Shown piece after piece: positions 40,068-56,959 of a DNA stretch of 64,000 bases (its first letter is position 1; the number at the start of each line of letters is the position of its first letter). The notes beneath the pieces are model-generated. The model saw only the letters and a program-made list of their open reading frames with translations, was not told the DNA's origin and did not search any database. The DNA is from Candidatus Doudnabacteria bacterium. GTDB lineage: Bacteria; Patescibacteriota; Doudnabacteria; UBA920. The position numbers and the translations under genes are program-made. The DNA is taken from positions 394,853-458,852 of the forward strand of contig CAWINB010000004.1 in the NCBI GenBank assembly GCA_963837465.1. The letters are read 5' to 3'.

Positions 40068-40847
40068 GTTCCAGGCAGATTTTACTTTTGGAAAGTTTTG
40101 GCAAAGAAAAATTCCTGAAACAAAACTTTTATCTGACCGGCGGCACTCCCTTGGCCGCTTTTTATTTGCGGCATCGTTATTCCGAAGACCTGGATTTTTT
40201 CAGCGAAACGGAATTTGATGTTTTAGAGCCTGTTTAATAAATTGCTTTTGAAGGCGATCTGCCAGAGGCGGAGGAGCTAAAAAGTTGAAGAAAAATGAGG
40301 CGATACCAGGGATTATCGGTGAATTTTGATGAGACTTTTGCAGCCCAATTCCTGAAATTGCGGCCAAAATGAATTTTTAAACAGGCTCTTAGACATTACT
40401 TCTTATTTCGGTAAAGTTAAGCAGGAAGCGGGCTTTGAAAAAATTGATTTGCAGCAAAGCTTTAACCGCAATCTTTATTTTTTAACTTTTCCGGAGGAAG
40501 TTTTGAAGCTGGAGTTTACCTATTTTCCTTTTCCCCGCATTGAGCGCGGGCCGGAACATTATGGAATTACCACTGACAGCCTTACGGATATAGCGGTCAA
40601 TAAATTATTTTCTGTCTACCAGCGTACCAAGGCCCGCGACTACATAGACTTATATTTTATTTGCAGGCGGGAAAATTTTACAATCCAGGATTTAATCGTC
40701 AAAGCCAGGGCCAAGTTTGATTTCCACATTGACCTGCTGCAGCTGGGGACAAAGTTTTCGCGGGCCGCCCAGGCAACGGATTACCCGCGAATGATAACAA
40801 AAGTTACCGACTCCGAATGGCAAGATTTCTTTAAGGATGAAGGATGA
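40055..40847 (+). pseudogene. AbiEii/AbiGii-family nucleotidyltransferase toxin gene, disrupted (two ORF fragments at 40055-40237 and 40449-40847)
   Basis: The N-terminal fragment has LTGGTPLAAFYLRHRYSEDLDFF (AbiEii/DUF1814 signature) and the C-terminal fragment continues the family. About 210 nt between them lack a continuous frame. Confidence 0.6.
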
Positions 40848-40919: not shown

Positions 40920-41015
40920 CCCGGCTCAGCCCAACTCGGCAGCATAGTAAAAAATTTAATGAACAACGAAAACGTGGCCAAAATAAGGAAATGGATGAAA
41001 AGCTTTTTGCCGTAA
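40920..41015 (+). other. diverged duplicate of the ftsA 3' end (encodes ...QLGSIVKNLMNNENVAKIRKWMKSFLP*)
   Basis: It is about 75% identical at the nucleotide level to the ftsA terminus at 39744-39834 and ends with the same MKSFLP-stop. Confidence 0.65.
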
Positions 41016-41152: not shown

Positions 41153-41533
41153 GTGTATAGTAGTCATATTTATTTTTTTGACACGGGATTGGTGAATGGG
41201 GATGAGGGTAAAAAGTTTGAAAATTTTATGGCTGTCAGCCTGCTTAAATCGGCATTGGGGGAAACAGACTATAGCGGAAAGGCCCATGAAGTAAACTATG
41301 TGCGCACTAAAGAAGGCAGGGAGGTCGATTTTGCCCTGGTGGAGAACAATAAAATTATCAGCCTGGTTGAAGCCAAACTGGCCGATGGAGAACCGGATAA
41401 AAATCTGAAATATTTTTCAGAAAAATACGGCATTGCCGGAACACAAGCGGTTAAGGAGCTTAAGCGCGAAAAATCTTTGGGCAAAATTGACGTGCTTTCG
41501 GCCGAGAGGTATTTAAAAAGCCTGTTTTTATGA
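41153..41533 (+). pseudogene. C-terminal fragment of an AAA-ATPase/DUF4143-family protein (N-terminal ATPase domain missing)
   Basis: A YFFDTGL motif lies near its start, and no upstream coding region for an ATPase domain is present. Confidence 0.45.
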
Positions 41534-41609: not shown

Positions 41610-42929
41610 TTACTTTTCCTCAAACGCCGCCCATAGGGCGCGGAATTTGTCTACATAAGGCTGAGTTTCTGCTTTCAAATGATGCTGCCAATTGGCGCCA
41701 TAGTCCCGAATGGCGTGAGCTGCTGTAGGGGCGCCGCCATTATAGGCTGCCGCCAAGTACTCTCCCATAAACTTAGAATCCTGGGAAAATACTCTTCTTT
41801 GCTCCGGGCTGGCATTACTTAAATCTGAATCGAAAAGCAACAGGGAAGCCATTGCGCTATTTTGATGGTCGTCCATACCATCTCGAAAGCCTTTAACCAA
41901 CCTGGCTTCGGGATACTTTCGGGCAATCGATTCATAAGTATTAGGAATGAATTGGAACAAACCACCGGCTCCGGCGTTGCTATAGGCATAAATATAGGAG
42001 TATTCCCTATTAGCTCCTACAACGGTTAGCACTCTGTTAGTCAAATCGCCAATAACTTCTCGCTCAGCGTTGGCCTGGGTCAACGTCGGTACATTTGGCG
42101 CGGTTGGATGCTCTAATTTATGAGCCTCACGTTTAAAGACAAAGGGGTCAATATGTTCGCTCATGGAAAGTAGTAATGCTACCTTCATAGGCATGGCATC
42201 GGCCAAAAGTTTGCCTGGGAAAGCTTTGGATACTACCTTCCTCATTCGCAAAGCCTCCTGGGCCGCAATTAGTTGCCCGACTAAATAATCATAACCCTTT
42301 TTTCTTATGACTGGCGTGTCCAGGTCTTCGGTGTAGGGGGTATATATTTCTTCCTCAAAATTATTTTCGATTTGCAGCGCTCTTTTCAGGGCTAAAACTA
42401 CATGATGTTGGGGAGCCGTAATTTCAAACGCTGTGCCAATACCTAACGCCTCTCCTTTTACTACTTTAAAACCCTCCTTGTTAGGGGCGCCGTTTTGATC
42501 TACGTTTATGAACTCAATTTGGTTAGGGTGATTTACGGAATCAGTAGCCGCCAACAGGATATTGTAAGTTTTTAGCTTTTCTTTATGCTTTATAACAGGC
42601 GCCCTTTTTTGTCCTTTTCTTTTCTTCCCGTAAATCGGTACGGACTCAACTGTAAATCCCGCTTTTTCATCTTCTAAGCCAATCCAGGCCTGGTCAATAA
42701 TGCCAAAAATTTCCGGACGGTTAACATAAGCGTCTTCACTGCTTAGAGATTCTCCGCTAATGAATTTGGGCGGCCTCAACTCGCCTTCTTGTTCCTTTTT
42801 CACTTCTTGGGCCACTTTGGCCGAATCAACTTTTGACCCTTCGCGCGGCAGCCGGTTGCGGATAAAATTAGCGGCGGCTCCGGCTCCGGCGGCAATGAAT
42901 AGATCCCTTCTGGAAAATTTTTCCGGCAT
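41610..42929 (-). CDS. secreted lytic transglycosylase (SLT-domain) protein
   Basis: The N-terminus is Tat-like (SRRDLFIAAGAGAAA), and the SLT motif is YSNAGAGGLFQFIPNTY. Confidence 0.65.
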   Translation of the reverse strand: MPEKFSRRDLFIAAGAGAAANFIRNRLPREGSKVDSAKVAQEVKKEQEGELRPPKFISGESLSSEDAYVNRPEIFGIIDQAWIGLEDEKAGFTVESVPIYGKKRKGQKRAPVIKHKEKLKTYNILLAATDSVNHPNQIEFINVDQNGAPNKEGFKVVKGEALGIGTAFEITAPQHHVVLALKRALQIENNFEEEIYTPYTEDLDTPVIRKKGYDYLVGQLIAAQEALRMRKVVSKAFPGKLLADAMPMKVALLLSMSEHIDPFVFKREAHKLEHPTAPNVPTLTQANAEREVIGDLTNRVLTVVGANREYSYIYAYSNAGAGGLFQFIPNTYESIARKYPEARLVKGFRDGMDDHQNSAMASLLLFDSDLSNASPEQRRVFSQDSKFMGEYLAAAYNGGAPTAAHAIRDYGANWQHHLKAETQPYVDKFRALWAAFEEK

Positions 42930-42941: not shown

Positions 42942-43937
42942 TTAGTAATAAAGATCTTGTTTGTATTTGTTCATCAGGTCGCGGTAGTTTTTTTCAACCA
43001 TGACATGGTAACAAGGCTGGTTGCCTTCTTGTTCCGCTTCAACGATGCCTTTTTCTTTGAGTAAAATCAGACGGCCTTCCAGCCAGCGTTTTTGCTGCGC
43101 AGTTAAAGGCCTGGAGATTTTTTCCAGGGGTGAAACTGCGTTCCCCGCGAGATCTTTTTTAAATTCATCACCCCAGACAATATCAACTGCCGCCCCGGTC
43201 GGGTGCACGGAACGGCTGGAACGGTTTCGGTTCCCCACTCTGGCCAAATCACCCGATTGCACGTCCCAAGGCCGGACAGCCGAGGAAACCATAAGCGGTG
43301 GCGCATCAGGAAACTCCAGAGCGTAGTCGTGGGCCAAATCGGTTAGGAATTCGGCGGTCCATTCCGCGCAATAATCTCGTTTATATTTGCTGCCTTGATG
43401 GACTTCTTTTCGGTGGTGCGGGCCTGTAGTGTAATAGGTGAAGTCTCCATGCAGCGATAAGTAAGGATCAAGAGTTAAAAATTTATTAGTTGGCAATTCC
43501 ACAAGGTAGCCACCATGGGGATTAGGAATCCCTTCGCCTTCTTTGTTCCTCATGTATCCATTATCGTTGACTTCAAACTTCATATGTTGCCACATGGCTT
43601 CTTTGTCTCGCAGACGGCTTAATCCATCTTGATCGGCCATTTCATTTTGCCGGTTCAGCGATTCGCGTCTGCCCAATAATTGAGTGGGGATGGCGTTTTT
43701 TTCATGGCTTAAGTCTGCGACTTTGGCGTGCCCTGGTTGACCTTCTTTAGCTTCATGTTTAGCTTCGGGTTTGGCTGCTTTTTGTGCTTCGGTCGGAAGA
43801 GGTTTGGGTTTGCTGCTCTCCAAAGAAGCCAGTTTTTTTGCAATGCCCTCTCCTGCTTGCTCCAGCATTGCGCCACCCAAAAAAGCGCCGCCAAGCCTAA
43901 GTGCATCCCTTCGATCGTATCCTTCTCTTTTAGCCAT
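42942..43937 (-). CDS. secreted peptidase M15/LAS-family-like cell-wall hydrolase (tentative)
   Basis: An SxHxxGxAxD-like motif (SVHPTGAAVD) and a Tat-like N-terminus (RRDALRLGGAFLGGA) are present. Confidence 0.45.
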   Translation of the reverse strand: MAKREGYDRRDALRLGGAFLGGAMLEQAGEGIAKKLASLESSKPKPLPTEAQKAAKPEAKHEAKEGQPGHAKVADLSHEKNAIPTQLLGRRESLNRQNEMADQDGLSRLRDKEAMWQHMKFEVNDNGYMRNKEGEGIPNPHGGYLVELPTNKFLTLDPYLSLHGDFTYYTTGPHHRKEVHQGSKYKRDYCAEWTAEFLTDLAHDYALEFPDAPPLMVSSAVRPWDVQSGDLARVGNRNRSSRSVHPTGAAVDIVWGDEFKKDLAGNAVSPLEKISRPLTAQQKRWLEGRLILLKEKGIVEAEQEGNQPCYHVMVEKNYRDLMNKYKQDLYY

Positions 43938-44012: not shown

Positions 44013-44041
44013 GCTTTTGCTATTGACAAAATATGGAAAAA
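44013..44041 (+). promoter_or_regulatory. perfect-consensus sigma70 promoter (TTGACA-N17-TATAAT) followed by a short hairpin with U-run, abutting the IS5 left end
   Basis: The promoter reads ttgaca aaatatggaaaaaatga tataat. Downstream aaaaacatca ttat tggtgttttt forms a hairpin. Confidence 0.4.
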
Positions 44042-44113
44042 ATGATATAATACAAAGTCAATATTATAAAGCGCCAGATAAAAACATCATTATTGGTGTT
44101 TTTAGCCGGCCCT

Positions 44114-45389
44114 TTAAGGGCCTGTTGCCGAATGCTTAAATTGGTAAAAAGATAAGCAAGCTGATTTTAGTCTAACCCTTTTTAGGATTAAGTTTGGTTA
44201 TCTTCGTATCAATTGTTTTGTTTGAGCGGTTTCGGAGGGAAATTTCAGGATACTTTTTCCTCTCCGGACGCGCTCCATCTCAAAGCCCCAATCTAGGGGC
44301 TTGTTTGTATTGGCAGAATGGTTATGGCTTTTTTAAGGTTATGGCAAATGGCTTCAAACGTGACCTGGAAAAATACTTTAGCCCGGCCTCTGAATTTGGC
44401 TCGTTTTCTGCATTTGGAGAAGGTGCCTTCAAAGGGCATTCTCATGGCGGATATCCAGCGATCCAAATCTTTGTTCTTGGTTTTGTTATTGTTCTTTCTG
44501 ATAGTTCCCGCGTGCAGACCGTGAGCTTTTAAAACATTATCGTTTTCTTTGCAGTCAAACAGCTTGTCGGAAAATACCATACCCTGTTTGGGGCAAATAC
44601 TGTCGGTAGTCTTGTAATCAGGTACATTAGCGGCGGTTACGGCCAGTTTGGTAATTAAACCGTATCTCATGTCCACGGCCTCGTGCCGCTTGTAGCCAAA
44701 CCAAATGCTGGTCTTGCTTTTGGCTCCCCAGCGGGCGTCTTTGTCGGTGGCGTAGTTTTTAACGTTTTTGTTGTTAAGTTTTTCCTCTCCGTCGGCTATG
44801 GCTTTGTCCCGTTCATCCCAGAGGGCGGTTTTGGTAATGATACTGGAAGCATCGATGAAGGTAAAAACATTGCCGACTAAGCCAAGTGATTCTAAATGCT
44901 TGTTAATACCGGTAAAAATATCGTAGAGTTTTTGTGCGCCAATTCTCTTTCGTAGCTTGCAAAAGTAGGTATGGTCAGGAGTTTGTTCTAGCAGGCCAAA
45001 GCCAGCAAACCAGCGGACAGCCATATTTTCCTTTACGCACTTTTCCATTTCCCGGTCCGAGTAGTCTTCCCAAAACTGGATAAGCAAAGCCAGAAAGCCT
45101 TTTTCTATGGCTATGCCGGTAGTGCCTAAATCGCTATACAAAGAACGTAAGGGAGAAACAAACTGCTCAAAGTCGATGATTTCCTTAAGTCTCCTAAATG
45201 GATGAGTGGCCTCTATTATTTTGTTAAAGATCTGTTGTTCTGTCTGCAAAAGAAACGGGCTGGTTTTATCATTGGGCTGTAACATTTTTTTATTTTCCTT
45301 AATGTTTACAGCTTAATTATATCATTTTAAAAACTTTTTTACTTGAGGAAAACTTAATATTTTTTGCCATTCGGCAACAGTCCCTTTAA
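44114..45389 (-). mobile_element. IS5-family insertion sequence with roughly 22-bp terminal inverted repeats
   Basis: Left end ttaaagggcctgttgccgaatg (44114-44134) matches the reverse complement of right end cattcggcaacagtccctttaa (45368-45389). Confidence 0.65.
44293..45285 (-). CDS. IS5-family DDE transposase
   Basis: The DDE_Tnp_1-like pattern has FIDASSIITK ... DKLFD ... and a C-terminal basic tail. Confidence 0.75.
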   Translation of the reverse strand: MLQPNDKTSPFLLQTEQQIFNKIIEATHPFRRLKEIIDFEQFVSPLRSLYSDLGTTGIAIEKGFLALLIQFWEDYSDREMEKCVKENMAVRWFAGFGLLEQTPDHTYFCKLRKRIGAQKLYDIFTGINKHLESLGLVGNVFTFIDASSIITKTALWDERDKAIADGEEKLNNKNVKNYATDKDARWGAKSKTSIWFGYKRHEAVDMRYGLITKLAVTAANVPDYKTTDSICPKQGMVFSDKLFDCKENDNVLKAHGLHAGTIRKNNNKTKNKDLDRWISAMRMPFEGTFSKCRKRAKFRGRAKVFFQVTFEAICHNLKKAITILPIQTSP

Positions 45390-45440
45390 CAAAATTTTCG
45401 ATTCACAAGTACCACGAATTTCGTCCAGGAGGACAACCCA

Positions 45441-46610
45441 ATGAAGAAGCAACACATGACGGCGAGCACGCTCGCCATTTTCGCGCTGATGGTTCTGGCC
45501 ACCATGACCGGATGCAGCAAACCCCAACCCGCGCCTGTTCAACAAAAAGCCGCGGAACAGCCCGAGCCGCCGCCGGCGCCCAAGAAGGTGTCCGTCACCT
45601 TTAAATCGTCGGAGGCCCCGTTCTATCTATCGGAGCATTACAGCGCTGGCAGAATCCAGGAGTTTAGGACGCAAAGCAATAAGTCTGACGATGTGTGGAC
45701 GGCTACCTACGACGAGATGAACCTTGGTAATAACAATCAGTACGCGACCCTGGTCCAAGACGGCAATATTGTGCTTACCAAGCGCATTCCGGCAGAGAAG
45801 TTCTCGGGCACCGAAGACAAGAGTATAGACTTAGACGACAGCGAGCTTGAGGCTCTCAGTCCTGACGGCTGGGTCGTGCGCCCGAATGTTCGCGTGCACG
45901 CGTTCAAGAGCGAATTCGCCGATACCAAGACCGTTAAAGTCGGGGGTGACGACAAGACCCTTGACGAACTCGCGAAGAGCCAGTACCCCTGGAGGATTAC
46001 CCGCTTCGGCCAAGGTTTCCAGGCCGAAGTGGATAACGATGTCCTCCTCAATGGCTTCCGTCCGGACGGAGTGCGCCTGTTCCTGCGGCGCCAAGAGGAG
46101 CTTAAGGCCGGCGACGACCTGGTCGAAGCCATTAAGGACGGATCCGTAACCGGTTTGGCCGTTGAGCAGCAGATTGGGAACTTCCATGAGTACGCTGCTC
46201 TGTTCGATTCTATGCCGGATGCCATTAAAGGTCCGGCGATCGATACGCTGGTTACCATCATGATTCCCAAAGTGACGGCCAAGGCTGACGAGCCTTCTGC
46301 TAGAAACGCTGCTGCTCGAGTCCTGCTAGATTTTACTTGGGACATGGTCAAGGCCATGCCGCCAACGATGGACTCAGCATGCAGTAACTGGCCAGATACA
46401 GTCGCAGACAGGCCGGTTCCGAACTATGGCAATCTCACCCAAAAGCAGTGCATGGAGAGGGTGGATATGCTTAAGTTCTGGGCGCGGCGCGGGCAGTTTT
46501 CATTCGAGAGGACCAAGGCCGATGTGGCCAAGGCGCTCGGTTCAGCTCCTGCTCCGGCCACCGGCGGCATTCCGAAAAAAGGTATCCCCAAGAAGGGAGC
46601 TGGTAAGTAG
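45441..46610 (+). CDS. lipoprotein, hypothetical (high-GC gene)
   Basis: A lipobox MTGCS follows a signal peptide, and the C-terminal tail is Gly/Lys-rich. Local GC is clearly above the window average. Confidence 0.5.
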   Translation: MKKQHMTASTLAIFALMVLATMTGCSKPQPAPVQQKAAEQPEPPPAPKKVSVTFKSSEAPFYLSEHYSAGRIQEFRTQSNKSDDVWTATYDEMNLGNNNQYATLVQDGNIVLTKRIPAEKFSGTEDKSIDLDDSELEALSPDGWVVRPNVRVHAFKSEFADTKTVKVGGDDKTLDELAKSQYPWRITRFGQGFQAEVDNDVLLNGFRPDGVRLFLRRQEELKAGDDLVEAIKDGSVTGLAVEQQIGNFHEYAALFDSMPDAIKGPAIDTLVTIMIPKVTAKADEPSARNAAARVLLDFTWDMVKAMPPTMDSACSNWPDTVADRPVPNYGNLTQKQCMERVDMLKFWARRGQFSFERTKADVAKALGSAPAPATGGIPKKGIPKKGAGK

Positions 46611-46776
46611 TAGTTGCTTTACCTCAAAATCCTCACTATAGGATCAGGGCGAGCAGTTTGCATCTAAATGATGTATTCTGCCCGCCCTGTTTTATTAGTT
46701 TAAATAGATATAAAGTTTTAATTATAGGAAAAAATATAATTTTCCTTTTAAATAAGGTACTAGATAATACTTATTC

Positions 46777-46805
46777 TTGACATATAGTTAGAAATAATGT
46801 ATAAT
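46777..46805 (+). promoter_or_regulatory. perfect-consensus sigma70 promoter (TTGACA-N17-TATAAT) with a long structured leader
   Basis: The promoter reads ttgaca tatagttagaaataatg tataat. Three hairpins follow before the ATG at 47082, including gtatcccttgc...gcaagggatac. Confidence 0.5.
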
Positions 46806-47081
46806 AATAAGTCAAAATTAAATTAGTTCTTTATCTTCTGGTTTCATTTTTGCTCTTAAAGAAAAAGCAAAAATGAGTCCAGAATTTCTGGCTCAATTGT
46901 TCTTTAATAAATATCCAGGAGGATAAACGTTACTATTTTAAATTTAAGTATCCCTTGCGAATAAAGCATCCATAAAATGAATGTTTGGATTCTTTCTTAG
47001 CAAGGGATACTCTCAAGTTCCCAAGCGCCCGGCACGTAGTGCCGGTATCCCAGTCAATACACTGTACAACGGAGAAAAAAG

Positions 47082-48584
47082 ATGCGTCAGAATTTTTTCG
47101 TCACTTTACTCGCCGCGATGCTCATTCTCACGGTGGGAAACGTAAACGCCCAACACAAGTTCGTCCCGACAACACCCGCTCCGGCCGTCGCACAGGAAAA
47201 ACCGGTGGCCGCGGAGCCCCCGGCGGAAACTCCGGAACAGGCCGCACCGGCAATAACTGACGACCATATTAAAGAGATCGCAGCAGCGGCGGTAGCAGAT
47301 GCTATTGCCAAACTGCCGGCCCCGCCAAGCAAGACCGCTATCGTGACGGAGGTTGTGAAGCAAATGCCATCCGCCCCCAACTATGACTTTTTCTTCTATA
47401 TCCAGGGTGGGATTGACCTCGTTCTGGCGATCGTTGGGGTTGTGTTTCTGTTGTTGCGCCGTAAGTCCAAGCGAAGAGTGATCTCTGGGGGAGCCGCGGC
47501 AGCCATTTTGTTGGCTTGCTTGATTGCTCTTTCCACGGTTCCTGTTCATGCAGCCGGTCCTACTGCAACTTGCACGCCCTATGTAACCAAGGACGGCACC
47601 CCCGTCGATATTACGTGCAAGGTTAACGGCATTACCAGCGCCGGCACGGTTACGTTTAGTGATACTAATGTGACCGCGACTGACGTCCACCTGACAGGCA
47701 ACACCTTGAAGTTCAAGGCAACGGCGGGCACTGCGGCGACGGCTCCCAACAGCCCCGACATGGCGGTTGATACTACCGCCGTCGGTTCTCCACTTGCGGT
47801 ACTGGACAATAACAGCGCCGCTCTCGCAGATATGGTCGTCAACATCGTCAAAGGATCCCCCGCTCCCACCACGGGCAGCGGCGCTTCCTCGGGAGGCGAC
47901 GACATCCGTTGGCACGCATTGTTTAACAGCGTCTGCGGAGTTGATAAGGCCCATGCCCGCTGCGGAAGGGAATTCGGACCCGCCATTACGGGGGACGAAT
48001 TGTTTGCGAAGCTGAAGGCGGCTCGCAACCAAGCGGAGGAAAACCTGGTGATGGGTATGTTCTCCAATGCTGTGGAGTTTAACTCTACCGACCGGGTTTT
48101 CCAAGACGATCGCTTCAAGGACGCCGCAAAGAAGACCGCGGATGCTCTCGCCGCCCTGAATGGGGCTGTTCAGAGCATCCAAGGCGGCGTAACCGAAACC
48201 CGCGTTCGCGCAATCGCTCGCGAGGAAGTTCAACCGGCCACCACGGCGGCTAATGAGGCTAAGGGCATCGCTGGTCAGGCGCTTGGCGAGGCAACTCGCG
48301 CCAATCTTCGGTTGACCAACATCGAACCCGTCATCAGTGCGAACGTCGAAGCCACGCAAGCGGCTCTCGAACTTGGTGACCATGGCGGTTCCTTCCTCGG
48401 CTTCGGCGGCGGCCCCAAACGGGATGTCAAGGTCGAAGCGAGGGCGGCTGGGTTTAAGCTCTTCTGTGCCCAGACGCTAGCCAAAACCGGCAAACCGGGC
48501 GAAGGTTGCCCGGTTCCGCAGTCCCAAGCTTCGGCCCAAAACGGCACCGCTGGTACAGTGGTGCAGATGCAGCCGAAGAAATAG
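47082..48584 (+). CDS. secreted protein with internal TM/anchor segment, hypothetical (high-GC gene)
   Basis: It has a signal peptide (MRQNFFVTLLAAMLILTVGNVNAQ) and a second hydrophobic segment followed by RRKSKRR. Confidence 0.5.
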   Translation: MRQNFFVTLLAAMLILTVGNVNAQHKFVPTTPAPAVAQEKPVAAEPPAETPEQAAPAITDDHIKEIAAAAVADAIAKLPAPPSKTAIVTEVVKQMPSAPNYDFFFYIQGGIDLVLAIVGVVFLLLRRKSKRRVISGGAAAAILLACLIALSTVPVHAAGPTATCTPYVTKDGTPVDITCKVNGITSAGTVTFSDTNVTATDVHLTGNTLKFKATAGTAATAPNSPDMAVDTTAVGSPLAVLDNNSAALADMVVNIVKGSPAPTTGSGASSGGDDIRWHALFNSVCGVDKAHARCGREFGPAITGDELFAKLKAARNQAEENLVMGMFSNAVEFNSTDRVFQDDRFKDAAKKTADALAALNGAVQSIQGGVTETRVRAIAREEVQPATTAANEAKGIAGQALGEATRANLRLTNIEPVISANVEATQAALELGDHGGSFLGFGGGPKRDVKVEARAAGFKLFCAQTLAKTGKPGEGCPVPQSQASAQNGTAGTVVQMQPKK

Positions 48585-48912
48585 TAACGTAATAAAACTC
48601 TAAGGACAGGCCTCTGCCAACAAACCTACCTTAGAGAGAACACTTAAAGGGGCGCCGTGCTCAGCTTATGCTGACTCCGCGCCCCCTTCACTTTTATATC
48701 ATTAAAATTTGTTAATATGGACAATGGTAAAAAGCCGTTGCGAAGTTGGAGAATTGTGATAAAATGAAAAGTCAAACTTGCCGCGTGGTTAAAAAAGCCA
48801 AATAGTTAGCTTTTTTAATTGCCCGGTAATATTGGGCAGGCTTAAAATATTTCAGGAGGATAAAATTTAATGATGCGTAATTGTCATACCGACAAGCAAA
48901 GTATGGGTTATT

Positions 48913-50103
48913 TTGTTTGTGGGTGTGACGATTATGAAAAATACTATACTACGAATTGCGTTGTTTTGTGCTGTGTTCGCCGCGGCTTCGGTCGCGTCGG
49001 CACAGCAAATGTTTTTTGAAACTCCCGAAGCCTGCACTTCGGCCGCTCCGGGAACATTTTCCGTTTACCAGCCCAAGTACGATACCAAATTGGGGTGGTG
49101 GAAGGAGATGAAATCCTTGGGCAAGGCTGAGCTCGTGGAAAACCACGGCAAGGTCTACTGTGCCGATGAGTTTACGGTTGTCGGCTGGAGAATTATTCAA
49201 TGGCCGGAAAACAACCCGTACTACACTTCGGACGGTAAGATTGCCGATGGTCGGTGTGGCAACGAAGTTCGCCACATTTGGGAAGTTCCTCCGCCTGCAC
49301 CGCCGCCCCAGTTGCCTCCACCGACCGGGAATATTCACGTAGTGAAAAAGACCTTTGATCCCGATTCGGTGCATATGATAATACCTACGGGCGCCGCGCA
49401 GGTGTTCGCGGGTACTACTCAAATACCGTTGAACCGGAATGATAACGGTGATGCCGAAGGCCTTATCGCTCTCCCCGAGGGCGATTACGACATAAGTGAA
49501 CAGTTTGACCCACAAGTCTGGACTCAGATTTGGTTGTCAAACAAGCGTGTTCATGTAGTTGCCGGTCAAACAGTTGAAGTCGAAATCAAGAACCAGCAAC
49601 TGCGCCCTCCGCCTCAACCGGTTGCCCCTCCCCATGTTTGCCCTATTTGCGGGGAAGTCGTCGCTTCGGCGGACTTGTCCCAGGTAGTGCTTACCGCGGA
49701 TCTTCAGCTTTGGGTTCGCGTGAAGTGGGAGGCAGTTCGGGTCATTGGAGTTTTTTGGCAGAATCGAGAGGTTTTTTCCGGACCCAACGGGACTCTCACT
49801 GTCTCCAACTTTAAGGGTGCTGGAATCTATGAGATGGAAGTACACGGAGAAGACAACGAAGGGCATATTCTGATTTGTGCTTTCAACGTTGTAACCGTGC
49901 TGCCCCCACCTCCACCGGCTCCCCATAAGGTAAAGAAAAACCACAAAAAGTTAGTGGTCGGCATAGTAATTGCAGTAGGTGTGGGGGTTTGCATTGCCTC
50001 TGCTGTTGAGGGGTGGCCTGTCCCATGCGGATGGGTGGTGAAGCTTTTTCATAAAGCCGCAGCCGCGCCAATTCAAAAGGCTCCCATTCCTGTAACCCGG
50101 TAG
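48913..50103 (+). CDS. secreted protein with C-terminal TM anchor and Pro-rich linkers, hypothetical (high-GC gene)
   Basis: A signal peptide follows MKNTIL (the probable start is near 48934). PPPAPPPQLPPP tracts are present, and the C-terminus has LVVGIVIAVGVGVCIASAV. Confidence 0.45.
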   Translation: MFVGVTIMKNTILRIALFCAVFAAASVASAQQMFFETPEACTSAAPGTFSVYQPKYDTKLGWWKEMKSLGKAELVENHGKVYCADEFTVVGWRIIQWPENNPYYTSDGKIADGRCGNEVRHIWEVPPPAPPPQLPPPTGNIHVVKKTFDPDSVHMIIPTGAAQVFAGTTQIPLNRNDNGDAEGLIALPEGDYDISEQFDPQVWTQIWLSNKRVHVVAGQTVEVEIKNQQLRPPPQPVAPPHVCPICGEVVASADLSQVVLTADLQLWVRVKWEAVRVIGVFWQNREVFSGPNGTLTVSNFKGAGIYEMEVHGEDNEGHILICAFNVVTVLPPPPPAPHKVKKNHKKLVVGIVIAVGVGVCIASAVEGWPVPCGWVVKLFHKAAAAPIQKAPIPVTR

Positions 50104-50372
50104 TTTTTCAGCCCCGGGCGCCACGGGCAAGCATCATATAAATGGCGCGGTAATCTCTTAAAAAGGCAGTTTGTTGGGAATTTTATTCCTACAACTGCCT
50201 TTTGTTTTTGGTTATAAGGTTAATTTTTTTGTTGCGCTTGACAGAAATACAGTTAATAGGTATAATATAAAGTCATTTTTTATTATTATCAACAAATAAT
50301 ATTTTTTGTGTTATAATTAACCAAGTTTATAAAAGCATTTAGTTTAATCAAATCTAATAATATAGCTAAATT

Positions 50373-51890
50373 ATGGAAAATCCATTTTCAAAAATTGCTA
50401 AAGCATATAAGGATAGTGATTTTGCTTTACGCGGGCAGACCAAAAGAGAAACCAAGGCTTTAGCCAGGGAAGAGGAGTTGACTGACGAGGCTTTGGTAGA
50501 CAAAATCCTCCAAGACCGGGGTTTTGGTAAATTTTTAGTGGACAGCAATCCAAAATACCAGAGCATGAACTTTGACAAGAAAGATTTTAAGGATATTCGG
50601 GAAAAGTATTACGCCTATACGGAATCCAAAAAGGTAGCCACGGAACTTAGGACTGTCTACAGCCAAGAGATAATGCAGGATTTGGATATTGAGCTAACAC
50701 CGGCTGAGCAAGATCAGGTATTTGAGAGCATGGATGTGGCACTAAGCAGCAGACTGCAAAAAGACGGCAGGAATATTGAAATTTCCAGGCTTAAAAATAA
50801 GCTGGAGGAATATAATAAATTAAAAGAACGGATTGAGCAACTTGAAAGCAAATTCCAGCAGGCGGGGGTCAACGAAGCTGTTATTGAGGGAATGTCCAGC
50901 GAAAAGGGAATGGATAAGCTAAGGGATCGCGAGAAGTTGGCAAAAACGGCTAAAAAGATAAAGGTGCCGTTTATGAAAGGCCGTAACCGCGGCATACAGG
51001 AAGCGCGTCAGGATTTAGTGGGTAATTTTGAAATTGAGAGAGAAAATATTAAAGCCCAATTCCAGGAGGTCAAAGCCGGCAGAAAAGAAGCGGAAGGACT
51101 GCGGCGACAACTCGACGAATTGAGGCAATATTTTTTGGTGCAGATTAAGATAGCGGACTCGGTCATAGACCGGGCAAGATTCCGGGCCAACGAAGTCCTT
51201 AAGGCTCGCGTAGAAACTGCCACCATCGAATACCAAAGACATGACCCTGCTTCAACCAAAAAAATGCAGGAGTTAGCTGACCTGCAGGCTTATTCAGAAC
51301 TTATGGACTCCACAGCCAGAAGCAAAACCGATGAAGATTATATGAATGATTTAGACGCGAAGCATCATTTTGGTGGGCGCAGGATTACGACTGCGGAGGC
51401 AGACCAGTTGGAAGCCTGGAGAGACCAGGAAGAGACCCGTGCAGCTTCAACTTTAGACACTACCGATTCAGCCAGTAAATTATTGGGCAAAATGCGTGAA
51501 GGCCGGAAGAAAAAAGGCAAAGGCGGCATTGATTATACAGCTGGCGGCCAGGTTGTTGACTTTTATGACCTTTATGACTTGGACACTGATACAGAGTTGG
51601 TAAAGAATTTGGATAGTATGCTGGAGAAGGAACTGGAGACTGTGATGGAACGAGCGGTTTTCACTTCCCGTACTATTCAGCAGTTTGAAGGCGCCTTGGA
51701 TCCGGTTTTAAAACGCTGGGAAGCCGGTCAGTATAATACCCGTGGCAAGGTCAGGAATTTTATCGCGGACAAGTTAGTTGCTCTTTGCAATACTCCTTCT
51801 ATGGAACCGGTTATGAAGGTGCAGGTTAAAGCTTTGCTGTATAAGCGCGGCATTTTTAAAGGCTTAACGCGCGTAGCGATACCTAAATAA
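50373..51890 (+). CDS. hypothetical coiled-coil protein, first gene of a four-gene operon
   Basis: It is charged and helical (505 aa) with no catalytic motif recognised. Confidence 0.4.
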   Translation: MENPFSKIAKAYKDSDFALRGQTKRETKALAREEELTDEALVDKILQDRGFGKFLVDSNPKYQSMNFDKKDFKDIREKYYAYTESKKVATELRTVYSQEIMQDLDIELTPAEQDQVFESMDVALSSRLQKDGRNIEISRLKNKLEEYNKLKERIEQLESKFQQAGVNEAVIEGMSSEKGMDKLRDREKLAKTAKKIKVPFMKGRNRGIQEARQDLVGNFEIERENIKAQFQEVKAGRKEAEGLRRQLDELRQYFLVQIKIADSVIDRARFRANEVLKARVETATIEYQRHDPASTKKMQELADLQAYSELMDSTARSKTDEDYMNDLDAKHHFGGRRITTAEADQLEAWRDQEETRAASTLDTTDSASKLLGKMREGRKKKGKGGIDYTAGGQVVDFYDLYDLDTDTELVKNLDSMLEKELETVMERAVFTSRTIQQFEGALDPVLKRWEAGQYNTRGKVRNFIADKLVALCNTPSMEPVMKVQVKALLYKRGIFKGLTRVAIPK

Positions 51891-51923
51891 TACCGATTTA
51901 AATTATAAAATAAAATAATATAT

Positions 51924-52214
51924 ATGAGCGTAGACCTATCAAAACTAGAACAGCTAGTTGAAGAAGAAAATTTTGAGCAAGCACAAAGTATGTTGGTGGA
52001 TTATTTTAGCCAACCCTTAACTCCGGAAGAACGCGGGCAGGCTTATATTGAAGTCGCCTCCGTTTATCTGGATATTGCCAATTATTTTAACAAGCAAAAG
52101 GCCGAGCTTCTTGAGGCCGGAATAAAAGCTTTGGCCGAACTGGACAAGCAGAGAAAGCAATTGGATGACTTGATAGATCTGGACAAAGTTCGCAAAGCCA
52201 TTAAAGACTCCTAA
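51924..52214 (+). CDS. small acidic helical protein, hypothetical
   Basis: It is 96 aa and lies 34 nt after the previous gene. Confidence 0.3.
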   Translation: MSVDLSKLEQLVEEENFEQAQSMLVDYFSQPLTPEERGQAYIEVASVYLDIANYFNKQKAELLEAGIKALAELDKQRKQLDDLIDLDKVRKAIKDS

Positions 52215-52230
52215 GAGCCTGTTTAAATTT

Positions 52231-52548
52231 ATGGATTCATTTGATATTCCAATGCCACCAGAAATCCGGCAGTTTTTGGAAGATATGCTCAAAGACGCGG
52301 ATGCTATGCCGGAGGCCGAGGAGCTGAAAGAAATGATGCTGAGCGATTTATACACCCGCTTGCAGGCCAAGCTGTTTTTACTTTTAGCCGACAAGTTGGA
52401 AGAAGACCAACTGGAAACTTACAGCAGGCTATCTACTTTGGATCCAGCCCAGGGAAACGCTTATTTAGATGATGTCCTGCCAAACTATAGGCAATTGTTT
52501 TTGCAAACTCTGGCGGAATTCAGGGGTGTGTTTTTAGGCAAAAAATAA
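52231..52548 (+). CDS. small acidic helical protein, hypothetical
   Basis: It is 105 aa and lies 17 nt after the previous gene. Confidence 0.3.
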   Translation: MDSFDIPMPPEIRQFLEDMLKDADAMPEAEELKEMMLSDLYTRLQAKLFLLLADKLEEDQLETYSRLSTLDPAQGNAYLDDVLPNYRQLFLQTLAEFRGVFLGKK

Positions 52549-52561
52549 GTTAAAACTTTTT

Positions 52562-55500
52562 ATGCCCAGGGAATATCGTCAAGGCACAGTTCTTGACCAA
52601 ATAGACGAGGAAAACAAAAACCGCGATACCGACATTGGCCATATTGAGCAGTCCCACCAGCCGGTTTTTCACAAGTCACAAAAATCCCGCGATGAGATTA
52701 AAATTAAACGCAAGCTGGATCTCGATAAGCCCGAAGTCCAGACTTTTAAGATTACCGCCGCGGCTGTGGACGAAATAATAGATGCGGCCGCTCAGAGAGT
52801 GGGCGAGCAAAAGGCTCAGGAATATTTGGATAAAGCGGGTTGGATAAAGAAATCTTTTGTGCGTCCCAGTGAAAAGGCACTGATAGAAAAGTTTAAAGAA
52901 GAAGTCAAAGCCGAGATTCTGGCCAACCGCAATTTAATGGCCAGCATTGAGGGCAGGGCGCTGCTGAATTCAAAAGTTGAAAAATTGCACGCCGATTCTG
53001 ACAGGGCGACACAGGCTATTTTTGAGGTATTGGTGGAAAGAGCTCATAATTTAGAGCGTAAATCTAATGAAGAATTTTGGGGACTTAGTTCAGGTCCGGA
53101 AGATAAAAAATCAAAACAAAAGAATGAAAAATACGAAACCAGGGAAAAAATCGCGCATACTGCGTCTATGGATGCCGCTGCCGCGGACTTGATCGCCAAA
53201 TGGGCTTTTGAGGAAATTCCTGACCGCAACGCTTTTGACGCCTTAGCTGAAGAGAAAATTTTTCGCAAATTAACCACCAAAGCCAATCTTGGCAAAGCGG
53301 AAACTTTTGCTTCCAATCTGTTTTTTGTCGCCGAGCAATATAAAGAGTCAATAGAAAAAACTTTAAAGAAAGCCGCTAAAGAATTTTCCCCGGCCGAAAA
53401 AACTAAAGTCCGTAATTATTTAAGGGGATCGGTTAGGTTAGATATCAATATGGCCCTGAGTAAGGCGGATATGGCTCGCCGCAAGCCCGAGGGTGTTATG
53501 CGCGCGGTGGAAGCAGTGGTTGATTTTACCCAAATGCCTTATTTGGCAAAACTAGGTAAATTTGCCGGTACTGGATTTGGCAAATTTTTGTCTAAAATTC
53601 CTGGTGGGAATTTTATGAGTAAAACAATTGACCGTCTATGGGGCTTAAGCGTTGGTAACCCTTTAGTTTATGCTTGGGTGGGTAACAGGTTAGCTTACGC
53701 GGCGGCTTCCGGAGTTGGTATTAAAACCGCAATGCTGGCCGGCACAGCTTTAGCCGTGGGTTTGGGGCCCGGCACTATTATGGCTATTGGCGCGGCTCTG
53801 GGCGGCGGCAGTTATTTTGCTTTGAGAAAAGCCGCCGAAATGAGCCGTGATAGGCGCAGGCGTGAAGACAAAGCCATTTTGGGAACAGGCCCTAAAGAAA
53901 GTCTGCAACCTGTAGATACCAGGGAAATTGGCCTGAAGCTTATTTTGCAATTGACTGAAAAAAAGGAGCCATTAACAGAAGAGGAAAAACAAAAAATTGG
54001 CCAATGGGCGGCGGCTTTGCGTTTGCATAATGTCCATAATGTTAATATTTTAGGAGTATCCAGGGAAGAAGGAGAAAGTAATAAAAGTAATATTGTGGCA
54101 GTGGATAATTTGCAAGAGGCTATTTTAAATTTGTTGGAAAAAAAACATGCGGAATTTCAGCATTACGACAGTAGCGCAAATAATTGGGACGCGCAAGCCC
54201 GCGATTTTAGCCGTTATATAGGTGACGCGGAAAGGAAGTTGCTGGAGAAAATCAAACTGGTCGATAAAGAAAAAGCCGCGGAAATTGTGCGGGGTGCTTT
54301 GGTTGCGGGCGTGGTGGGTGGCGCTATCGCGGGCGTCGGTTCTATATTAAGTCCCGAAGTCCTGAAGTTACTTAAAGAGGGGGTAAATGTCGCTTCCCAC
54401 AATCTTGGCGGACATGATGTCTTTGATACCAACTATAATACTTATGCCGAAGCTTTGTGGCATAAGGGGGCTGAAAAGCTTGGCTGGGTTCCTGCTGCCC
54501 CCACTCATTTTAATGGTGAAATGGTGCCAAATGATTTTGCTATTTTTAATGGTCACACTCAAATTAAATTACCGGTAGGGTATGGTAGTTTTCATTTACA
54601 TAATAACAGCGGTGATTTTATTGTCATTACAGATCCGGCACAGCATGTTGTGGGAAACCCCATTCAAGTTGGTGCTGACGGTATAATAAACCCGGCCTCC
54701 TGGAACCATTTTACCCATGACTTAGGGTGGCAAGTTAATCATGCAGACGCAGCCGCGGCCGCTCACGGCGGCATCCCTGGCCATTCCCGCAGCTTTACGG
54801 ACTGGCTGCATGACTTAAGGTCTCATTTGCCCAACGGAGTTAAGATAGAAGAAGCTCATTTTAAGGGAAATTATGACAACTTAACCCCAAATTCAGATTT
54901 AAATGAGCTTAATTTCCATATTAATGTGGCAGGGAATGGTGATGTCCACTGGGATGTGCAGAACTTAATGCAGTATGGCTCATTTCATCAAGTTGGAGGA
55001 ACTTTTATTCCGGGCGCTGCTCCCTATCAGCCTGATATGACGGCATTGCTTCATTCCGGCGACCTTAAATTTGTAATTATTCCCGATGCGGCGCATCCGC
55101 ATGACGCCATATTTTTAAATATGGACTCAACAGGACACGCTATTGTTCCCAAAGATATAGCGCAGTGCCTGTTAAATTCCGCCACCGGCCACCCCAAAGA
55201 AGGTGTGCTTATTGGCTCCGCTCATATTTTAGACAGACCCGGCGGTGGTAAAGATATGATAATGATCAACGCAATTAAGGGTCATGGCGAGGCTGTAAAT
55301 TATGACATGTCTTCGGCCGCTACCCCTACGGGCACTACAGCAGGTCCGGCAATTTGGGATGCCCGCCCTCCGATTGTATACACCAGCGAAGCCCCGTACG
55401 GTCCTGCCGGTTATCGCCGCCAGACGGACGAGGATATAACTACCGCACGGGAAAAACGGGAAACAAAAGAATTGGAACGGCAGTGGAAAGAGCAACTTGC

Positions 55501-56959
55501 TAAAATGTCTCCGGAAGAAAAAATGCTTATGGCGCAGAATGATATGCTGGCTGTTTTAAGCGGATCTGACAAAACGCTGACCGCGATTATTCCGGCTTTT
55601 GATAAAACATCCGCTAGGTACCGATTAGATGAAGCACAGCAGGAAAAATTACTTGTAGATATCTGTAAGGCTAAGGGTATGACTGATGAAGAAGTAAAGA
55701 CCGCGTTGGCTCAACAAGTTCAACAGAACGCCGCGCCTGTAGCAGTTGCTGCGGGCGGGGGTACCCCTGAGGCGCAAGCATCCTCTACTCCTGCGGCCCA
55801 GTCGTTTTCCACTAAAAAAACAGCATTGCTCAATAGTTTGCTGGCAAGAGAAATGGAAGCAAGCAGGAAAGCCGCGTTTCCCGAAGCTGCTCCTGACAGG
55901 CGGTTCCTCAGCGAACTTAATAAAAGAGAATCCAATCGTGCTCCGCATTTGGAATTCAGCGCGGACGATGGTTTATTGAAAAAGAAAACGGATTTAGATT
56001 TTATAAACTCCCTGGCCGAGTCTGTCCATGACTTTTTGGTCGCGGAAGGTCTGGACGCAAATGTTTACAGCCTGGCATCTTATAAAATTAAAATTACGGA
56101 AACCCCTCCTTATGGTTGGAATGAAAAGGATAAGAGCTTGTTGTCTGTGGGAACAACTGAATCTCCAAATAAAATAGCTTTGGATATTTTGGAAAAAATT
56201 AAAACTCCGGATTCGCCCCTTGAATATAGATATAGGGACCTGACGGAAGTTAATAATTCAGCAGATAATAAAGAGCCGACCTTAAAATTTAGCTATGATC
56301 CAGGTGTGTTGATTGGCATTGGTCAAAGTGCCGTTAACAATTATGGCAAACGTTTGCATAGCGAACTACGAAGCCAGATCGGCACTGACCCAAGGTTTGA
56401 AGACGCTCTGTTAAGAATTAATTTTATAAACCCTCGGGATCCAATGCCCGATGTTCCGGATATTGATGCTCATGGGTATACTATTATGACGTTGCCTTTT
56501 GGCGACAATGTTAAAAGAGATGCAGGGATAATTTTAAGGGAAATGAAACGATTGGCACCCGAGACATTGCCGCCGGTTGATAGAGTGTTTTTGAGGGATA
56601 TTAATAATTTGCCCGGAAACCAGAATCCCAATATAGCATTTGATATGCCGGATTCAATAATCAGAGAAATGGGATCACCGGAAGCCAAGATTTATGTGAC
56701 AAGAATAGCGGCAAAAATGGAAGCGAAGCTCAATCAACTGAAAGCGGCTAATGGAGGAAGGGATAGGGCCTTTTTTGAATCTTTGGTTATTTCAGTTGGG
56801 GTTAGCAGGAATGCGGCTGATTTGCACGGCACTCTTGGAGCTGACGGTAGTTTTCAGTTCACTTTTCCCGCTTACAAAGGAACGGTTAATAGGGAGCCGG
56901 ATAATAGAATAGAGGCCAGAATTAATCAGCAGTTTGAAGAAATAAGGAATGCGCCCTAA
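52562..56959 (+). CDS. giant protein (1465 aa) with Gly-rich hydrophobic segments, function unknown
   Basis: It starts 14 nt after the previous gene. It contains putative membrane-inserting Gly/Ala-rich segments (GTALAVGLGPGTIMAIGAALGGGSYFAL; LVAGVVGGAIAGVGSIL). No known catalytic motif was recognised by eye. Confidence 0.5.
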   Translation: MPREYRQGTVLDQIDEENKNRDTDIGHIEQSHQPVFHKSQKSRDEIKIKRKLDLDKPEVQTFKITAAAVDEIIDAAAQRVGEQKAQEYLDKAGWIKKSFVRPSEKALIEKFKEEVKAEILANRNLMASIEGRALLNSKVEKLHADSDRATQAIFEVLVERAHNLERKSNEEFWGLSSGPEDKKSKQKNEKYETREKIAHTASMDAAAADLIAKWAFEEIPDRNAFDALAEEKIFRKLTTKANLGKAETFASNLFFVAEQYKESIEKTLKKAAKEFSPAEKTKVRNYLRGSVRLDINMALSKADMARRKPEGVMRAVEAVVDFTQMPYLAKLGKFAGTGFGKFLSKIPGGNFMSKTIDRLWGLSVGNPLVYAWVGNRLAYAAASGVGIKTAMLAGTALAVGLGPGTIMAIGAALGGGSYFALRKAAEMSRDRRRREDKAILGTGPKESLQPVDTREIGLKLILQLTEKKEPLTEEEKQKIGQWAAALRLHNVHNVNILGVSREEGESNKSNIVAVDNLQEAILNLLEKKHAEFQHYDSSANNWDAQARDFSRYIGDAERKLLEKIKLVDKEKAAEIVRGALVAGVVGGAIAGVGSILSPEVLKLLKEGVNVASHNLGGHDVFDTNYNTYAEALWHKGAEKLGWVPAAPTHFNGEMVPNDFAIFNGHTQIKLPVGYGSFHLHNNSGDFIVITDPAQHVVGNPIQVGADGIINPASWNHFTHDLGWQVNHADAAAAAHGGIPGHSRSFTDWLHDLRSHLPNGVKIEEAHFKGNYDNLTPNSDLNELNFHINVAGNGDVHWDVQNLMQYGSFHQVGGTFIPGAAPYQPDMTALLHSGDLKFVIIPDAAHPHDAIFLNMDSTGHAIVPKDIAQCLLNSATGHPKEGVLIGSAHILDRPGGGKDMIMINAIKGHGEAVNYDMSSAATPTGTTAGPAIWDARPPIVYTSEAPYGPAGYRRQTDEDITTAREKRETKELERQWKEQLAKMSPEEKMLMAQNDMLAVLSGSDKTLTAIIPAFDKTSARYRLDEAQQEKLLVDICKAKGMTDEEVKTALAQQVQQNAAPVAVAAGGGTPEAQASSTPAAQSFSTKKTALLNSLLAREMEASRKAAFPEAAPDRRFLSELNKRESNRAPHLEFSADDGLLKKKTDLDFINSLAESVHDFLVAEGLDANVYSLASYKIKITETPPYGWNEKDKSLLSVGTTESPNKIALDILEKIKTPDSPLEYRYRDLTEVNNSADNKEPTLKFSYDPGVLIGIGQSAVNNYGKRLHSELRSQIGTDPRFEDALLRINFINPRDPMPDVPDIDAHGYTIMTLPFGDNVKRDAGIILREMKRLAPETLPPVDRVFLRDINNLPGNQNPNIAFDMPDSIIREMGSPEAKIYVTRIAAKMEAKLNQLKAANGGRDRAFFESLVISVGVSRNAADLHGTLGADGSFQFTFPAYKGTVNREPDNRIEARINQQFEEIRNAP

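Follow-up and report, generated by a model that had tools for sequence, protein, structure and literature searches.

Three GC-rich genes in an island between ftsA and ftsZ

The DNA analysed here is a 64,000-nt stretch (the window) from the genome of a Candidatus Doudnabacteria bacterium (contig CAWINB010000004.1). In this window 18.7 kb of accessory DNA, the island, lies between ftsA and ftsZ and contains a GC-rich block at positions 45400-50110 with three genes termed P1, P2 and P3. An earlier, sequence-only reading of the block had proposed that it encodes three surface proteins acquired horizontally, possibly from a high-GC host or neighbour. The genes and their conserved flanks are listed below (ORF, open reading frame; CDS, coding sequence; GC3, GC content at third codon positions).

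38587-39834, + strand: ftsA, left conserved flank (Pfam FtsA and SHS2_FTSA; synteny)
45441-46610, + strand: P1 ORF, 389 aa, GC 56.6%, GC3 67.9%
47082-48584, + strand: P2 ORF, 500 aa, GC 58.6%, GC3 64.1%
48913-50103, + strand: P3 ORF, 396 aa from a TTG, GC 52.2%, GC3 53.7%
48934-50103, + strand: probable true CDS of P3, 389 aa from an ATG; homologues align from the MKNT start
58608-59828, + strand: ftsZ, right conserved flank (Pfam Tubulin and FtsZ_C; 80 related loci)

Over lengths of 4.7 kb, GC content in the window peaks at the block (52.3%, compared to a mean of 46.1%, standard deviation (sd) 2.4); only 0.17% of 4.7-kb windows match it, and the runner-up, 401-5100, reaches 51.8%. The three spacers are AT-rich (31.8% GC at 46611-47081, 39.0% at 48585-48933 and 29.0% at 50104-50372), equal to or below the mean of intergenic DNA across the window (38.4%, sd 7.2), and the GC excess is thus confined to the three CDSs. 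The contrast is modest. The 39 large ORFs of the window average 47.9% GC (sd 5.2) and 52.7% GC3 (sd 8.4), and the elevation of P3 is marginal only; the visual contrast is partly due to unusually AT-rich neighbours and spacers. The sequence-only reading was therefore right that the block stands out from its flanks, and the long antisense ORFs that it had pointed to are present at 45737-46357, 47106-48383 and 48949-49515. Within the second most GC-rich stretch lies another GC-rich gene (332-1942, 52%); its product, of unassigned family, has 536 aa, is rich in Ser, Gly, Ala and Pro and carries a signal peptide.

Features of the three encoded proteins

The prediction of three secreted or anchored proteins was borne out: signal peptides can be read from all three sequences and are retained in homologues, and so are the lipobox Cys25 in P1, the hydrophobic hairpin inside P2, and the Pro-rich linkers and C-terminal transmembrane (TM) helix in P3. 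P1, whose start is preceded by an AGGAGG Shine-Dalgarno sequence, is a probable lipoprotein with a signal peptide and Cys25 at the end of the segment ...LATMTGC. Cys25, Cys314 and Cys337 are invariant across the three known members of its family, and a motif near the C-terminus, FWARRGQF-FERTK, is conserved. No match to P1 was found in Pfam, NCBIfam or PHROGs, and a PDB sequence search gave no family.

P2 consists of a signal peptide, a Pro/Ala-rich segment, a TM helix, the basic sequence RRKSKRR and a second hydrophobic helix ending in VHA/AG (an AxA-like site), followed by an immunoglobulin (Ig)-like beta-sandwich (residues 161-241), a conserved Cys-containing helical domain (DMRW..FN.VCG...CGREFG) and long helices. 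The family alignment shows that both the signal peptide and the hydrophobic hairpin are kept. In the AlphaFold2 (AF2) model the predicted local distance difference test (pLDDT) score is 83-93 over residues 161-241. Foldseek matches of this segment are weak and generic Ig-like ones (1jmx, InvE 5n40 and filamin domains; E 2.5e-3 to 5e-2); it has no Big or Ig-like Pfam match at E up to 0.01, and no family was found in NCBIfam, PHROGs or PDB sequences.

P3 probably starts at the ATG at 48934 rather than at the TTG at 48913 that opens the ORF. From this start it has a signal peptide (MKNTILRIALFCAVFAAASVASA/QQ) and then a Cys-containing N-terminal domain; Pro-rich linkers and two beta-sandwich domains come next, and an HVCPxCG motif precedes the TM anchor at the C-terminus. 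The signal peptide, the linkers and the anchor are kept in homologues. The deposited annotation (P0050) is a 331-aa protein that begins at an internal Met and is without the conserved signal peptide. The C-terminus (...HKVKKNHKKLVVGIVIAVGVGVCIASAVEGWPVPCGWVVKLFHK...) has no LPXTG motif, and the motif conserved in this part is EGWPVPCGW. In the AF2 model, pLDDT is 76-91 over residues 131-222, and matches in fold were obtained with surface proteins of Gram-positive bacteria, namely TIE, BcpA and SraP (E 4.5e-5 to 1e-3); sequence searches of Pfam, NCBIfam, PHROGs and PDB gave no family. Just 5' of the P3 start, at position 48870, a small ORF opens in another frame and has a strong AGGAGG site.

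Homologues of P1, P2 and P3 reside at the same locus in related genomes

Relatives of P2 were searched exhaustively with HMMER among 1.84 billion representative proteins, and those of P1 and P3 by word-indexed and pattern-based searches. The exhaustive search returned 11 P2 relatives at 27-46% identity. Two homologues of P1 were found at 35-37% identity (L083:148-1344 and, on the minus strand, L088:1503-2648; E 5e-49 and 2e-60), and iterative searches of the fetched loci gave families of 3 (P1), 11 (P2) and 11 (P3) members. In the word-indexed search of 5.8 billion proteins P1 and P2 had matched only themselves, and P3 its own deposited truncated version and two relatives. An orphan status of P1 and P2 was rejected, since the later searches found relatives; the word-indexed result reflects a limit of sensitivity.

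Contig context was checked for seven of the 11 P2 relatives and six of them occupy the island position. P0040 is 5' of a gene for a DUF5663 protein, a 1691-aa gene and ftsZ; P0041 is found with a pilin-domain gene, a toxin-antitoxin pair and ftsZ; P0042 lies between ftsA and ftsZ; P0043 is 5' of DUF5663 and a giant gene; P0047 is 3' of ftsA and P0049 is 5' of DUF5663. The remaining one, P0039, adjoins a P1 homologue on L083, a contig of 4 kb in which no core genes flank it. Two more P2 homologues are 5' of ftsZ in the GTDB loci L017 and L019. The relatives of P1 and P3 sit in the same places: P1-like and P2-like genes are adjacent in L083 and L088, and P2 is directly followed by P3 in the window, in L085/L012, in L089 and in L091. 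No homologue was found in another taxon, the search being exhaustive for P2 only, and all homologues with a readable context are in Doudnabacteria-type synteny or next to island genes. Scans of viral contigs gave no relatives of P1 and P3 (the P2 alignment is too divergent for the search patterns), none of the three proteins matched PHROGs, and pattern scans of metagenome contigs for the P1 and P2 families gave no match. A search of the literature on Doudnabacteria yielded nothing about this locus.

The arrangement of this locus was compared across 80 loci obtained by an FtsZ scan of species-representative genomes. The genes hisS-HIT-YqeY-ftsA-ftsZ are contiguous in about 20 more distant Doudnabacteria-like genomes as well as in L011 and L025, with a gap of ~100-250 bp between ftsA and ftsZ. 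Most of the closer relatives, whose FtsZ is 76-86% identical, have the two genes at least 7 kb apart, with variable genes in between; three kinds of protein are encoded there repeatedly, upstream of ftsZ, namely DUF5663, giant and T4SS_pilin-domain proteins. This patchiness concerns the island, not the three-gene block specifically: the whole island is missing in L011, L025 and the ~20 deeper relatives, and it is variable elsewhere. The splitting of ftsA from ftsZ is thereby documented as a recurrent hot spot of accessory genes.

The P proteins diverge quickly. In L017 and L019, FtsZ is 96% identical and the P2 homologues are 62% identical. Trees and identity matrices of FtsZ and of P2 and P3 were uninformative on transfer, the N-terminus of FtsZ being too conserved and the P families too divergent.

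High GC content is a property of the gene families

The GC content of the block has two components. Firstly, much of the contrast comes from proteins rich in Ala, Pro, Gly and Val. GC contents expected from the amino acids alone, computed with the leave-one-out codon usage of the window, were 0.514 for P1, 0.551 for P2 and 0.522 for P3, compared to a mean of 0.481, and no other gene has a value as high as that of P2; P2 contains 17% Ala, and P3 9.8% Pro and 12.3% Val. Secondly, after this correction there is a synonymous GC excess of +0.053 for P1 (top of the 39 genes, z ~1.8), +0.036 for P2 and +0.001 for P3. As the core genes GyrA, TopA, Der, LytR, HisS, FtsA and FtsZ show an excess of +0.015 to +0.032 themselves (FtsA +0.032, LytR +0.031), the difference from core genes within the 64 kb is about +0.03 for P1, +0.01 for P2 and -0.02 for P3. 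The codon usage of P2 and P3 is core-like and that of P1 mildly different (codon-bias distance 0.449, compared to a mean of 0.322). Nearby accessory genes (those of the SLT-like, DUF5715, 1465-aa and pilin-domain proteins) have a synonymous value of -0.03 to -0.05. The sequence-only reading had suggested comparing GC, GC3 and codon usage per gene, and would have given up horizontal acquisition if they did not differ significantly from the rest of the genome. In raw GC the block exceeds the rest of the window, but synonymous usage is close to the outcome that the reading named as refuting.

The same composition is seen throughout the families. All 25 members have a GC content of 0.52-0.70 and a GC3 of 0.54-0.83, while GC3 of the local ftsZ ranges from 0.36 (L017, L019) to 0.75 (L050). 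The window copies are among the least GC-rich: in GC content P3 ranks last in its family and P1 last among three, while P2 ranks last of its family in GC3. In L089, core GC3 is 0.23-0.39 compared to 0.57-0.66 in three adjacent signal-peptide genes. The synonymous excess there, relative to the core genes of the same genome, is +0.08 to +0.105, and in L091 it is +0.05 to +0.09; in L087 and L050, whose GC is higher (core GC3 0.69-0.75), the P genes are not outliers. The AT-rich backbone genes of the island (DUF5663, giant protein and pilin-domain protein) are always below core genes in GC. Because all members are GC-rich whatever their background, and the window copies are among the least so, the distinctness of the block belongs to the module as a conserved trait and does not mark a recent arrival.

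Further GC-rich genes (53-68%), several with signal peptides, were seen at 4858-7579 in L085, 6713-9300 in L091, 127-1846 in L092, 3418-4026 in L084 and 6919-7776 in L089. By BLAST they are not members of the P1, P2 or P3 families, and the GC-rich class may include more families than these three.

Promoters and terminators of the P genes

The transcription signals around the block, with the hairpins read from the sequence, are:

44023-44051, + strand: perfect sigma-70 promoter (TTGACA-17-TATAAT) with TG, separated from P1 by an insertion sequence (IS)
46645-46696, + strand: terminator-like hairpin after P1, CAGGGCGAGCAG...CTGCCCGCCCTG, then TTTTATT; read by eye, its long loop accounting for its absence from the automatic scan
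46777-46805, + strand: perfect sigma-70 consensus promoter 5' of P2, leader ~277 nt
48647-48697, + strand: terminator-like hairpin after P2, AAGGGGCGC...GCGCCCCCTT, then a T-rich tail
50165-50209, + strand: terminator-like hairpin after P3, GGCAGTTTGT...ACAACTGCC, then TTTTGTTTTT
50238-50266, + strand: perfect sigma-70 promoter of a 505-aa coiled-coil protein gene

Four perfect sigma-70 promoters are present in the window, compared to 0.03 expected. The one at 44023-44051 is probably the original promoter of P1. Since promoters lie upstream of P1, P2 and P3 and a hairpin with a T-run lies behind each of them, the three genes appear to be separate units with long leaders, and their promoters suggest strong transcription. 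Related genomes have perfect promoters 5' of P-family genes as well (in L029, in L085/L086 and, twice, in L088): related loci totalling 937 kb contain 37 perfect sites, six of which are within 500 nt 5' of P-family genes, compared to ~0.25 by chance according to our estimate.

The fourth perfect promoter of the window (24962-24990, + strand) is located just past the start of dprA (23834-24931, - strand). There is no obvious gene on the + strand before 25893, and the target of this promoter could be a small RNA or a small ORF.

An IS5 element was inserted upstream of P1

The mobile element that the sequence-only reading had seen beside the block is real and is delimited as follows:

44113-45389, - strand: IS5-family insertion sequence, with TTTAA repeated at its two ends
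44113-44134 and 45368-45389: terminal inverted repeats, 22 nt, 91% complementary
44293-45285, - strand: IS5 transposase (Pfam DUF772 and DDE_Tnp_1; NCBIfam IS5 and IS1182 models)

It has the features of its family, namely a DDE transposase, terminal inverted repeats and a TTTAA target-site duplication. The transposase scores above the Pfam cut-offs for DUF772 and DDE_Tnp_1; with NF033581 it reaches E 1e-35 and 123 bits, below the 140-bit cut-off. In other samples, 22 transposases at least 90% identical to it were found. The element is located in the 5' leader of P1, 51 bp upstream of the ATG and between the 44023-44051 promoter and the gene. It occurs once, flanks the block on one side only, has its own target duplication and has no match in any of the related loci compared; it is therefore read as a later, independent insertion into the P1 leader and not as a vehicle for the block or a clue to its acquisition. 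A composite transposon was rejected as there is one IS copy with its own target duplication, and no second match to the inverted repeats occurs in the window. The insertion probably uncouples P1 from its promoter and may thus silence the gene.

Other genes of the island

The remaining features between ftsA and ftsZ are:

40932-41014, + strand: relic ftsA 3' end, 80% nucleotide identity to 39751-39833 (83 nt), encoding QLGSIVKNLMNNENVAKIRKWMKSFLP followed by a stop
41610-42929, - strand: SLT-like lytic transglycosylase, synonymous GC deficit -0.03
42942-43937, - strand: DUF5715 protein, synonymous GC deficit -0.03
within 50373-58289: genes of the 505-aa coiled-coil protein, which has its own perfect promoter at 50238-50266, and of a 96-aa protein
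52231-52548: DUF5663 protein
52562-56959: 1465-aa membrane protein
57015-58289, - strand: 424-aa T4SS_pilin-domain protein

The relic ftsA copy is a complete FtsA C-terminal helix with its stop codon and marks an earlier end of ftsA. The 1.18 kb between the two ftsA 3' copies contains AbiEii-like pseudogene fragments (39992-40237 and 40449-40847). Combined, the relic end and the AbiEii-like fragments point to repeated insertion at the ftsA border of the island. A DUF4143-like fragment is present at 41153-41533. The island genes at 50373-58289 have a GC content of 44-48% and a synonymous GC deficit. No integrase, tRNA or flanking direct repeats were found at the block.

The SLT-like and DUF5715 proteins have RR-containing N-termini that resemble twin-arginine translocation (Tat) signals (SRRDLFIAAGAGAAA and DRRDALRLGGAFLGG). 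L021 carries a homologous pair whose orientation to ftsZ is opposite to that in the window. A tandem duplication of 174-177 nt (80% identity) is found at 57402-57752, inside the gene of the 424-aa T4SS_pilin-domain protein. The Logan contig L002 (sample ERR10755945) corresponds to 50130-56078 of the same strain in an independent short-read assembly and is 99.98% identical; a 1-bp indel in it splits the 505-aa coiled-coil gene into frames of 193 and 305 aa, which reflects either heterogeneity in the population or a mistake in assembly. A diversity-generating retroelement target was considered, as L087 has an Avd-like gene close to ftsZ, and was rejected for the block, where neither template nor variable repeats were found. 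No repeat of at least 30 nt involves 45400-50110 apart from one 71%-complementary pair at chance level, and there is no reverse transcriptase among the scanned window proteins, which did not include every small ORF.

A probable resident cell-envelope module rather than a recent import

In our judgement the block is probably a cell-envelope module restricted to Doudnabacteria, long resident in the ftsA-ftsZ island, in which GC content is a family trait and not a sign of recent import. The module would consist of the lipoprotein P1, the hairpin-anchored Ig-like protein P2 and the Pro-rich, C-terminally anchored beta-sandwich protein P3, carried by an island that splits ftsA and ftsZ in one subclade. 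Each gene would be expressed as its own unit, from a perfect or near-consensus sigma-70 promoter through a long leader with a Shine-Dalgarno sequence to a hairpin/T-run terminator, the units being set apart by AT-rich spacers. We infer that the products, once exported, remain attached to the surface of the cell, where they would most likely mediate contact with other cells or with substrates; they diverge very quickly. The high GC would arise partly from a composition rich in Ala, Pro, Gly, Val and Thr and partly from codons ending in G or C, and would be held at ~52-70% in every genome. The genes of the window appear to be old residents because their codon usage is close to that of core genes in this genome, and the IS5 element would have entered the P1 leader afterwards.

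Several observations weigh against this interpretation. The P1 family consists of the window protein and two known homologues, and the type of search used for P1 and P3 leaves room for distant relatives in other taxa. The models of P2 and P3 have a low overall confidence (mean pLDDT 59.6 and 53.7) and their fold matches are generic. The codon usage of the P genes in low-GC relatives is clearly atypical, which leaves room for lateral spread within the lineage and makes a lateral origin at some point in the history of the module plausible; to this extent the proposal of horizontal acquisition is supported, whereas recent acquisition by this genome is not. Finally, high expression alone is an unlikely cause of the GC-rich codons, and as the sole cause of GC3 it is weakened by rpsU: this gene, the only ribosomal protein gene of the window, has an ordinary GC3 of 0.554, and its GC3 is ~0.40-0.49 in L089 and L091.

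The first alternative, which we consider unlikely, is that the module spreads laterally within Doudnabacteria from higher-GC lineages such as L087 and L050, by recombination through the ftsA and ftsZ flanks and with slow amelioration, the window copy being old and largely ameliorated. The family values (GC ~0.6, GC3 ~0.65-0.8) match the core genes of L087 and L050, synonymous usage in the low-GC genomes looks foreign (+0.05 to +0.105), close relatives differ in the presence of the island, and both the relic ftsA end, as a trace of recombination or insertion at the border, and the divergence of P2 between L017 and L019 would fit. However, near-identical P alleles were not found in divergent genomes, all pairs being at most 62% identical. 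The P2 and FtsZ trees are uninformative, the spacers of the block are as AT-rich as host intergenic DNA, and the DUF5663, giant and pilin-domain backbone genes are without the GC signature.

A second alternative, which we regard as improbable, is that GC is maintained in place, either by GC-biased gene conversion at a hypervariable locus or by selection on codon or mRNA composition in highly expressed genes. It would account for a GC content that is constant across genomes of very different background, for a very fast divergence, which is expected under diversifying selection or recombination, and for the perfect promoters with the strong transcription that they suggest; a recombination-associated elevation of GC3 has reportedly been seen in bacteria. 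However, the enrichment ends at CDS boundaries where gene-conversion tracts should reach into the spacers, the GC3 of rpsU is ordinary, and the giant proteins of the island, which evolve equally fast, are AT-rich.

A recent acquisition from a high-GC organism outside the lineage, possibly aided by IS5, is very improbable and largely refuted: the block is indeed the GC maximum of the window, P1 has the top synonymous excess and a large codon-bias distance, an IS adjoins, and P1 and P2 were without relatives in the word-indexed search, but homologues were found only in Doudnabacteria, in the same island, with the search exhaustive for P2, none were seen on viral contigs or in PHROGs in the scans described, P2 and P3 are core-like, the IS is a one-sided insertion with its own duplication that block-carrying relatives do not have, and neither integrase, tRNA nor direct repeats flank the block.

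More tentatively, the resident module can be pictured as an exchangeable surface cassette of three families between ftsA and ftsZ that sets contact with partner cells, with its GC actively held at ~60% by biased gene conversion or selection regardless of the genome; we think this doubtful as a whole. If true, it would provide a natural bacterial example of gene-specific GC homeostasis, and the IS5 insertion in the P1 leader would be one route to switch off a surface protein.

Patescibacteria of the candidate phyla radiation, Doudnabacteria among them, are considered to have a lifestyle of attachment to other cells, and the proteins that make the contact are mostly unknown. As three uncharacterised exported families that are strongly promoted, fast-evolving and gathered at one locus, P1, P2 and P3 are candidate surface or host-interaction factors. 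The case also illustrates that a GC-rich block beside an IS is insufficient to call horizontal transfer, as the signature is here a conserved family trait.

Other observations in the window

About 15 kb from the block, a tRNA-Val (30482-30558, + strand) is directly followed by a large serine recombinase (30744-32126, - strand) and then by AT-rich genes that include an APH-type phosphotransferase (33765-34649); this region may be an element integrated at the tRNA. A repeat of ~60 nt at 15295-15355 and 22350-22410, inverted, 95% complementary and 7 kb apart, flanks gyrA-topA and has a related copy at 23710-23786. It may be an element resembling miniature inverted-repeat transposable elements or a substrate for inversion. 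The segment 12058-14672 (2.6 kb, 43% GC) has no ORF of at least 150 aa on either strand. GyrA of the window groups at 90% identity or more with proteins named Candidatus Doudnabacteria. In this cluster, two members are deposited under metagenome-assembled genomes of Candidatus Limnocylindria (Chloroflexota), on 4-kb contigs; this is probably mis-binning and could also reflect co-occurrence with a partner organism.

Comparison with known systems

P1 resembles bacterial lipoproteins of the Lgt/LspA pathway in its short basic N-terminus, hydrophobic core and invariant Cys25, and one homologue (in L083) has the canonical lipobox LAAC. It differs from them in that the window sequence, M-T-G-C, is non-canonical at position -3 and in that the mature domain is without a known relative. 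Genes for Lgt and LspA were not seen among the scanned genes of the window.

P3 is similar to the Gram-positive adhesins and pilins with Ig-like or CnaB-type sandwiches, such as TIE of B. anthracis, BcpA of B. cereus and SraP of S. aureus, in having a signal peptide, tandem beta-sandwiches, Pro-rich linkers and a C-terminal membrane anchor. P2, with one Ig-like sandwich that is modelled confidently, would be comparable to these adhesins and to the Big domains of invasin and intimin. The likeness has its limits: there is neither an LPXTG motif nor a Pfam match, the fold scores are weak (template modelling (TM) score at most 0.18 over the whole model), and isopeptide bonds or polymerisation find no support.

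The locus itself can be compared with three known arrangements. Firstly, in the division and cell wall (dcw) cluster ftsA and ftsZ are adjacent, and the distant Doudnabacteria as well as L011 and L025 retain this adjacency; the pair of the window departs from it, being split by the 18.7 kb of accessory genes and having the relic ftsA end 1.18 kb downstream of the functional one. Secondly, as in a classical acquired island with tRNA, integrase and atypical GC, the block has a GC content atypical among its neighbours and a mobile element adjoins it. It is unlike such islands in that its closest homologues are in the same lineage and at the same locus, its codon usage is near-native and the IS is a simple later insertion. 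Thirdly, the locus corresponds to flexible (hypervariable) genomic islands with cell-envelope genes, a type known from comparing closely related strains and metagenomes: the flanks are conserved and the segment between them is variable, with some close relatives having it and others not, and it holds exported or surface proteins that diverge faster than the flanks, atypical composition, toxin-antitoxin remnants and an IS. What sets it apart from flexible islands is its site inside the division cluster, distinctive genes that are GC-rich and not AT-rich, and the persistence of three families and of the P2-P3 order across species.

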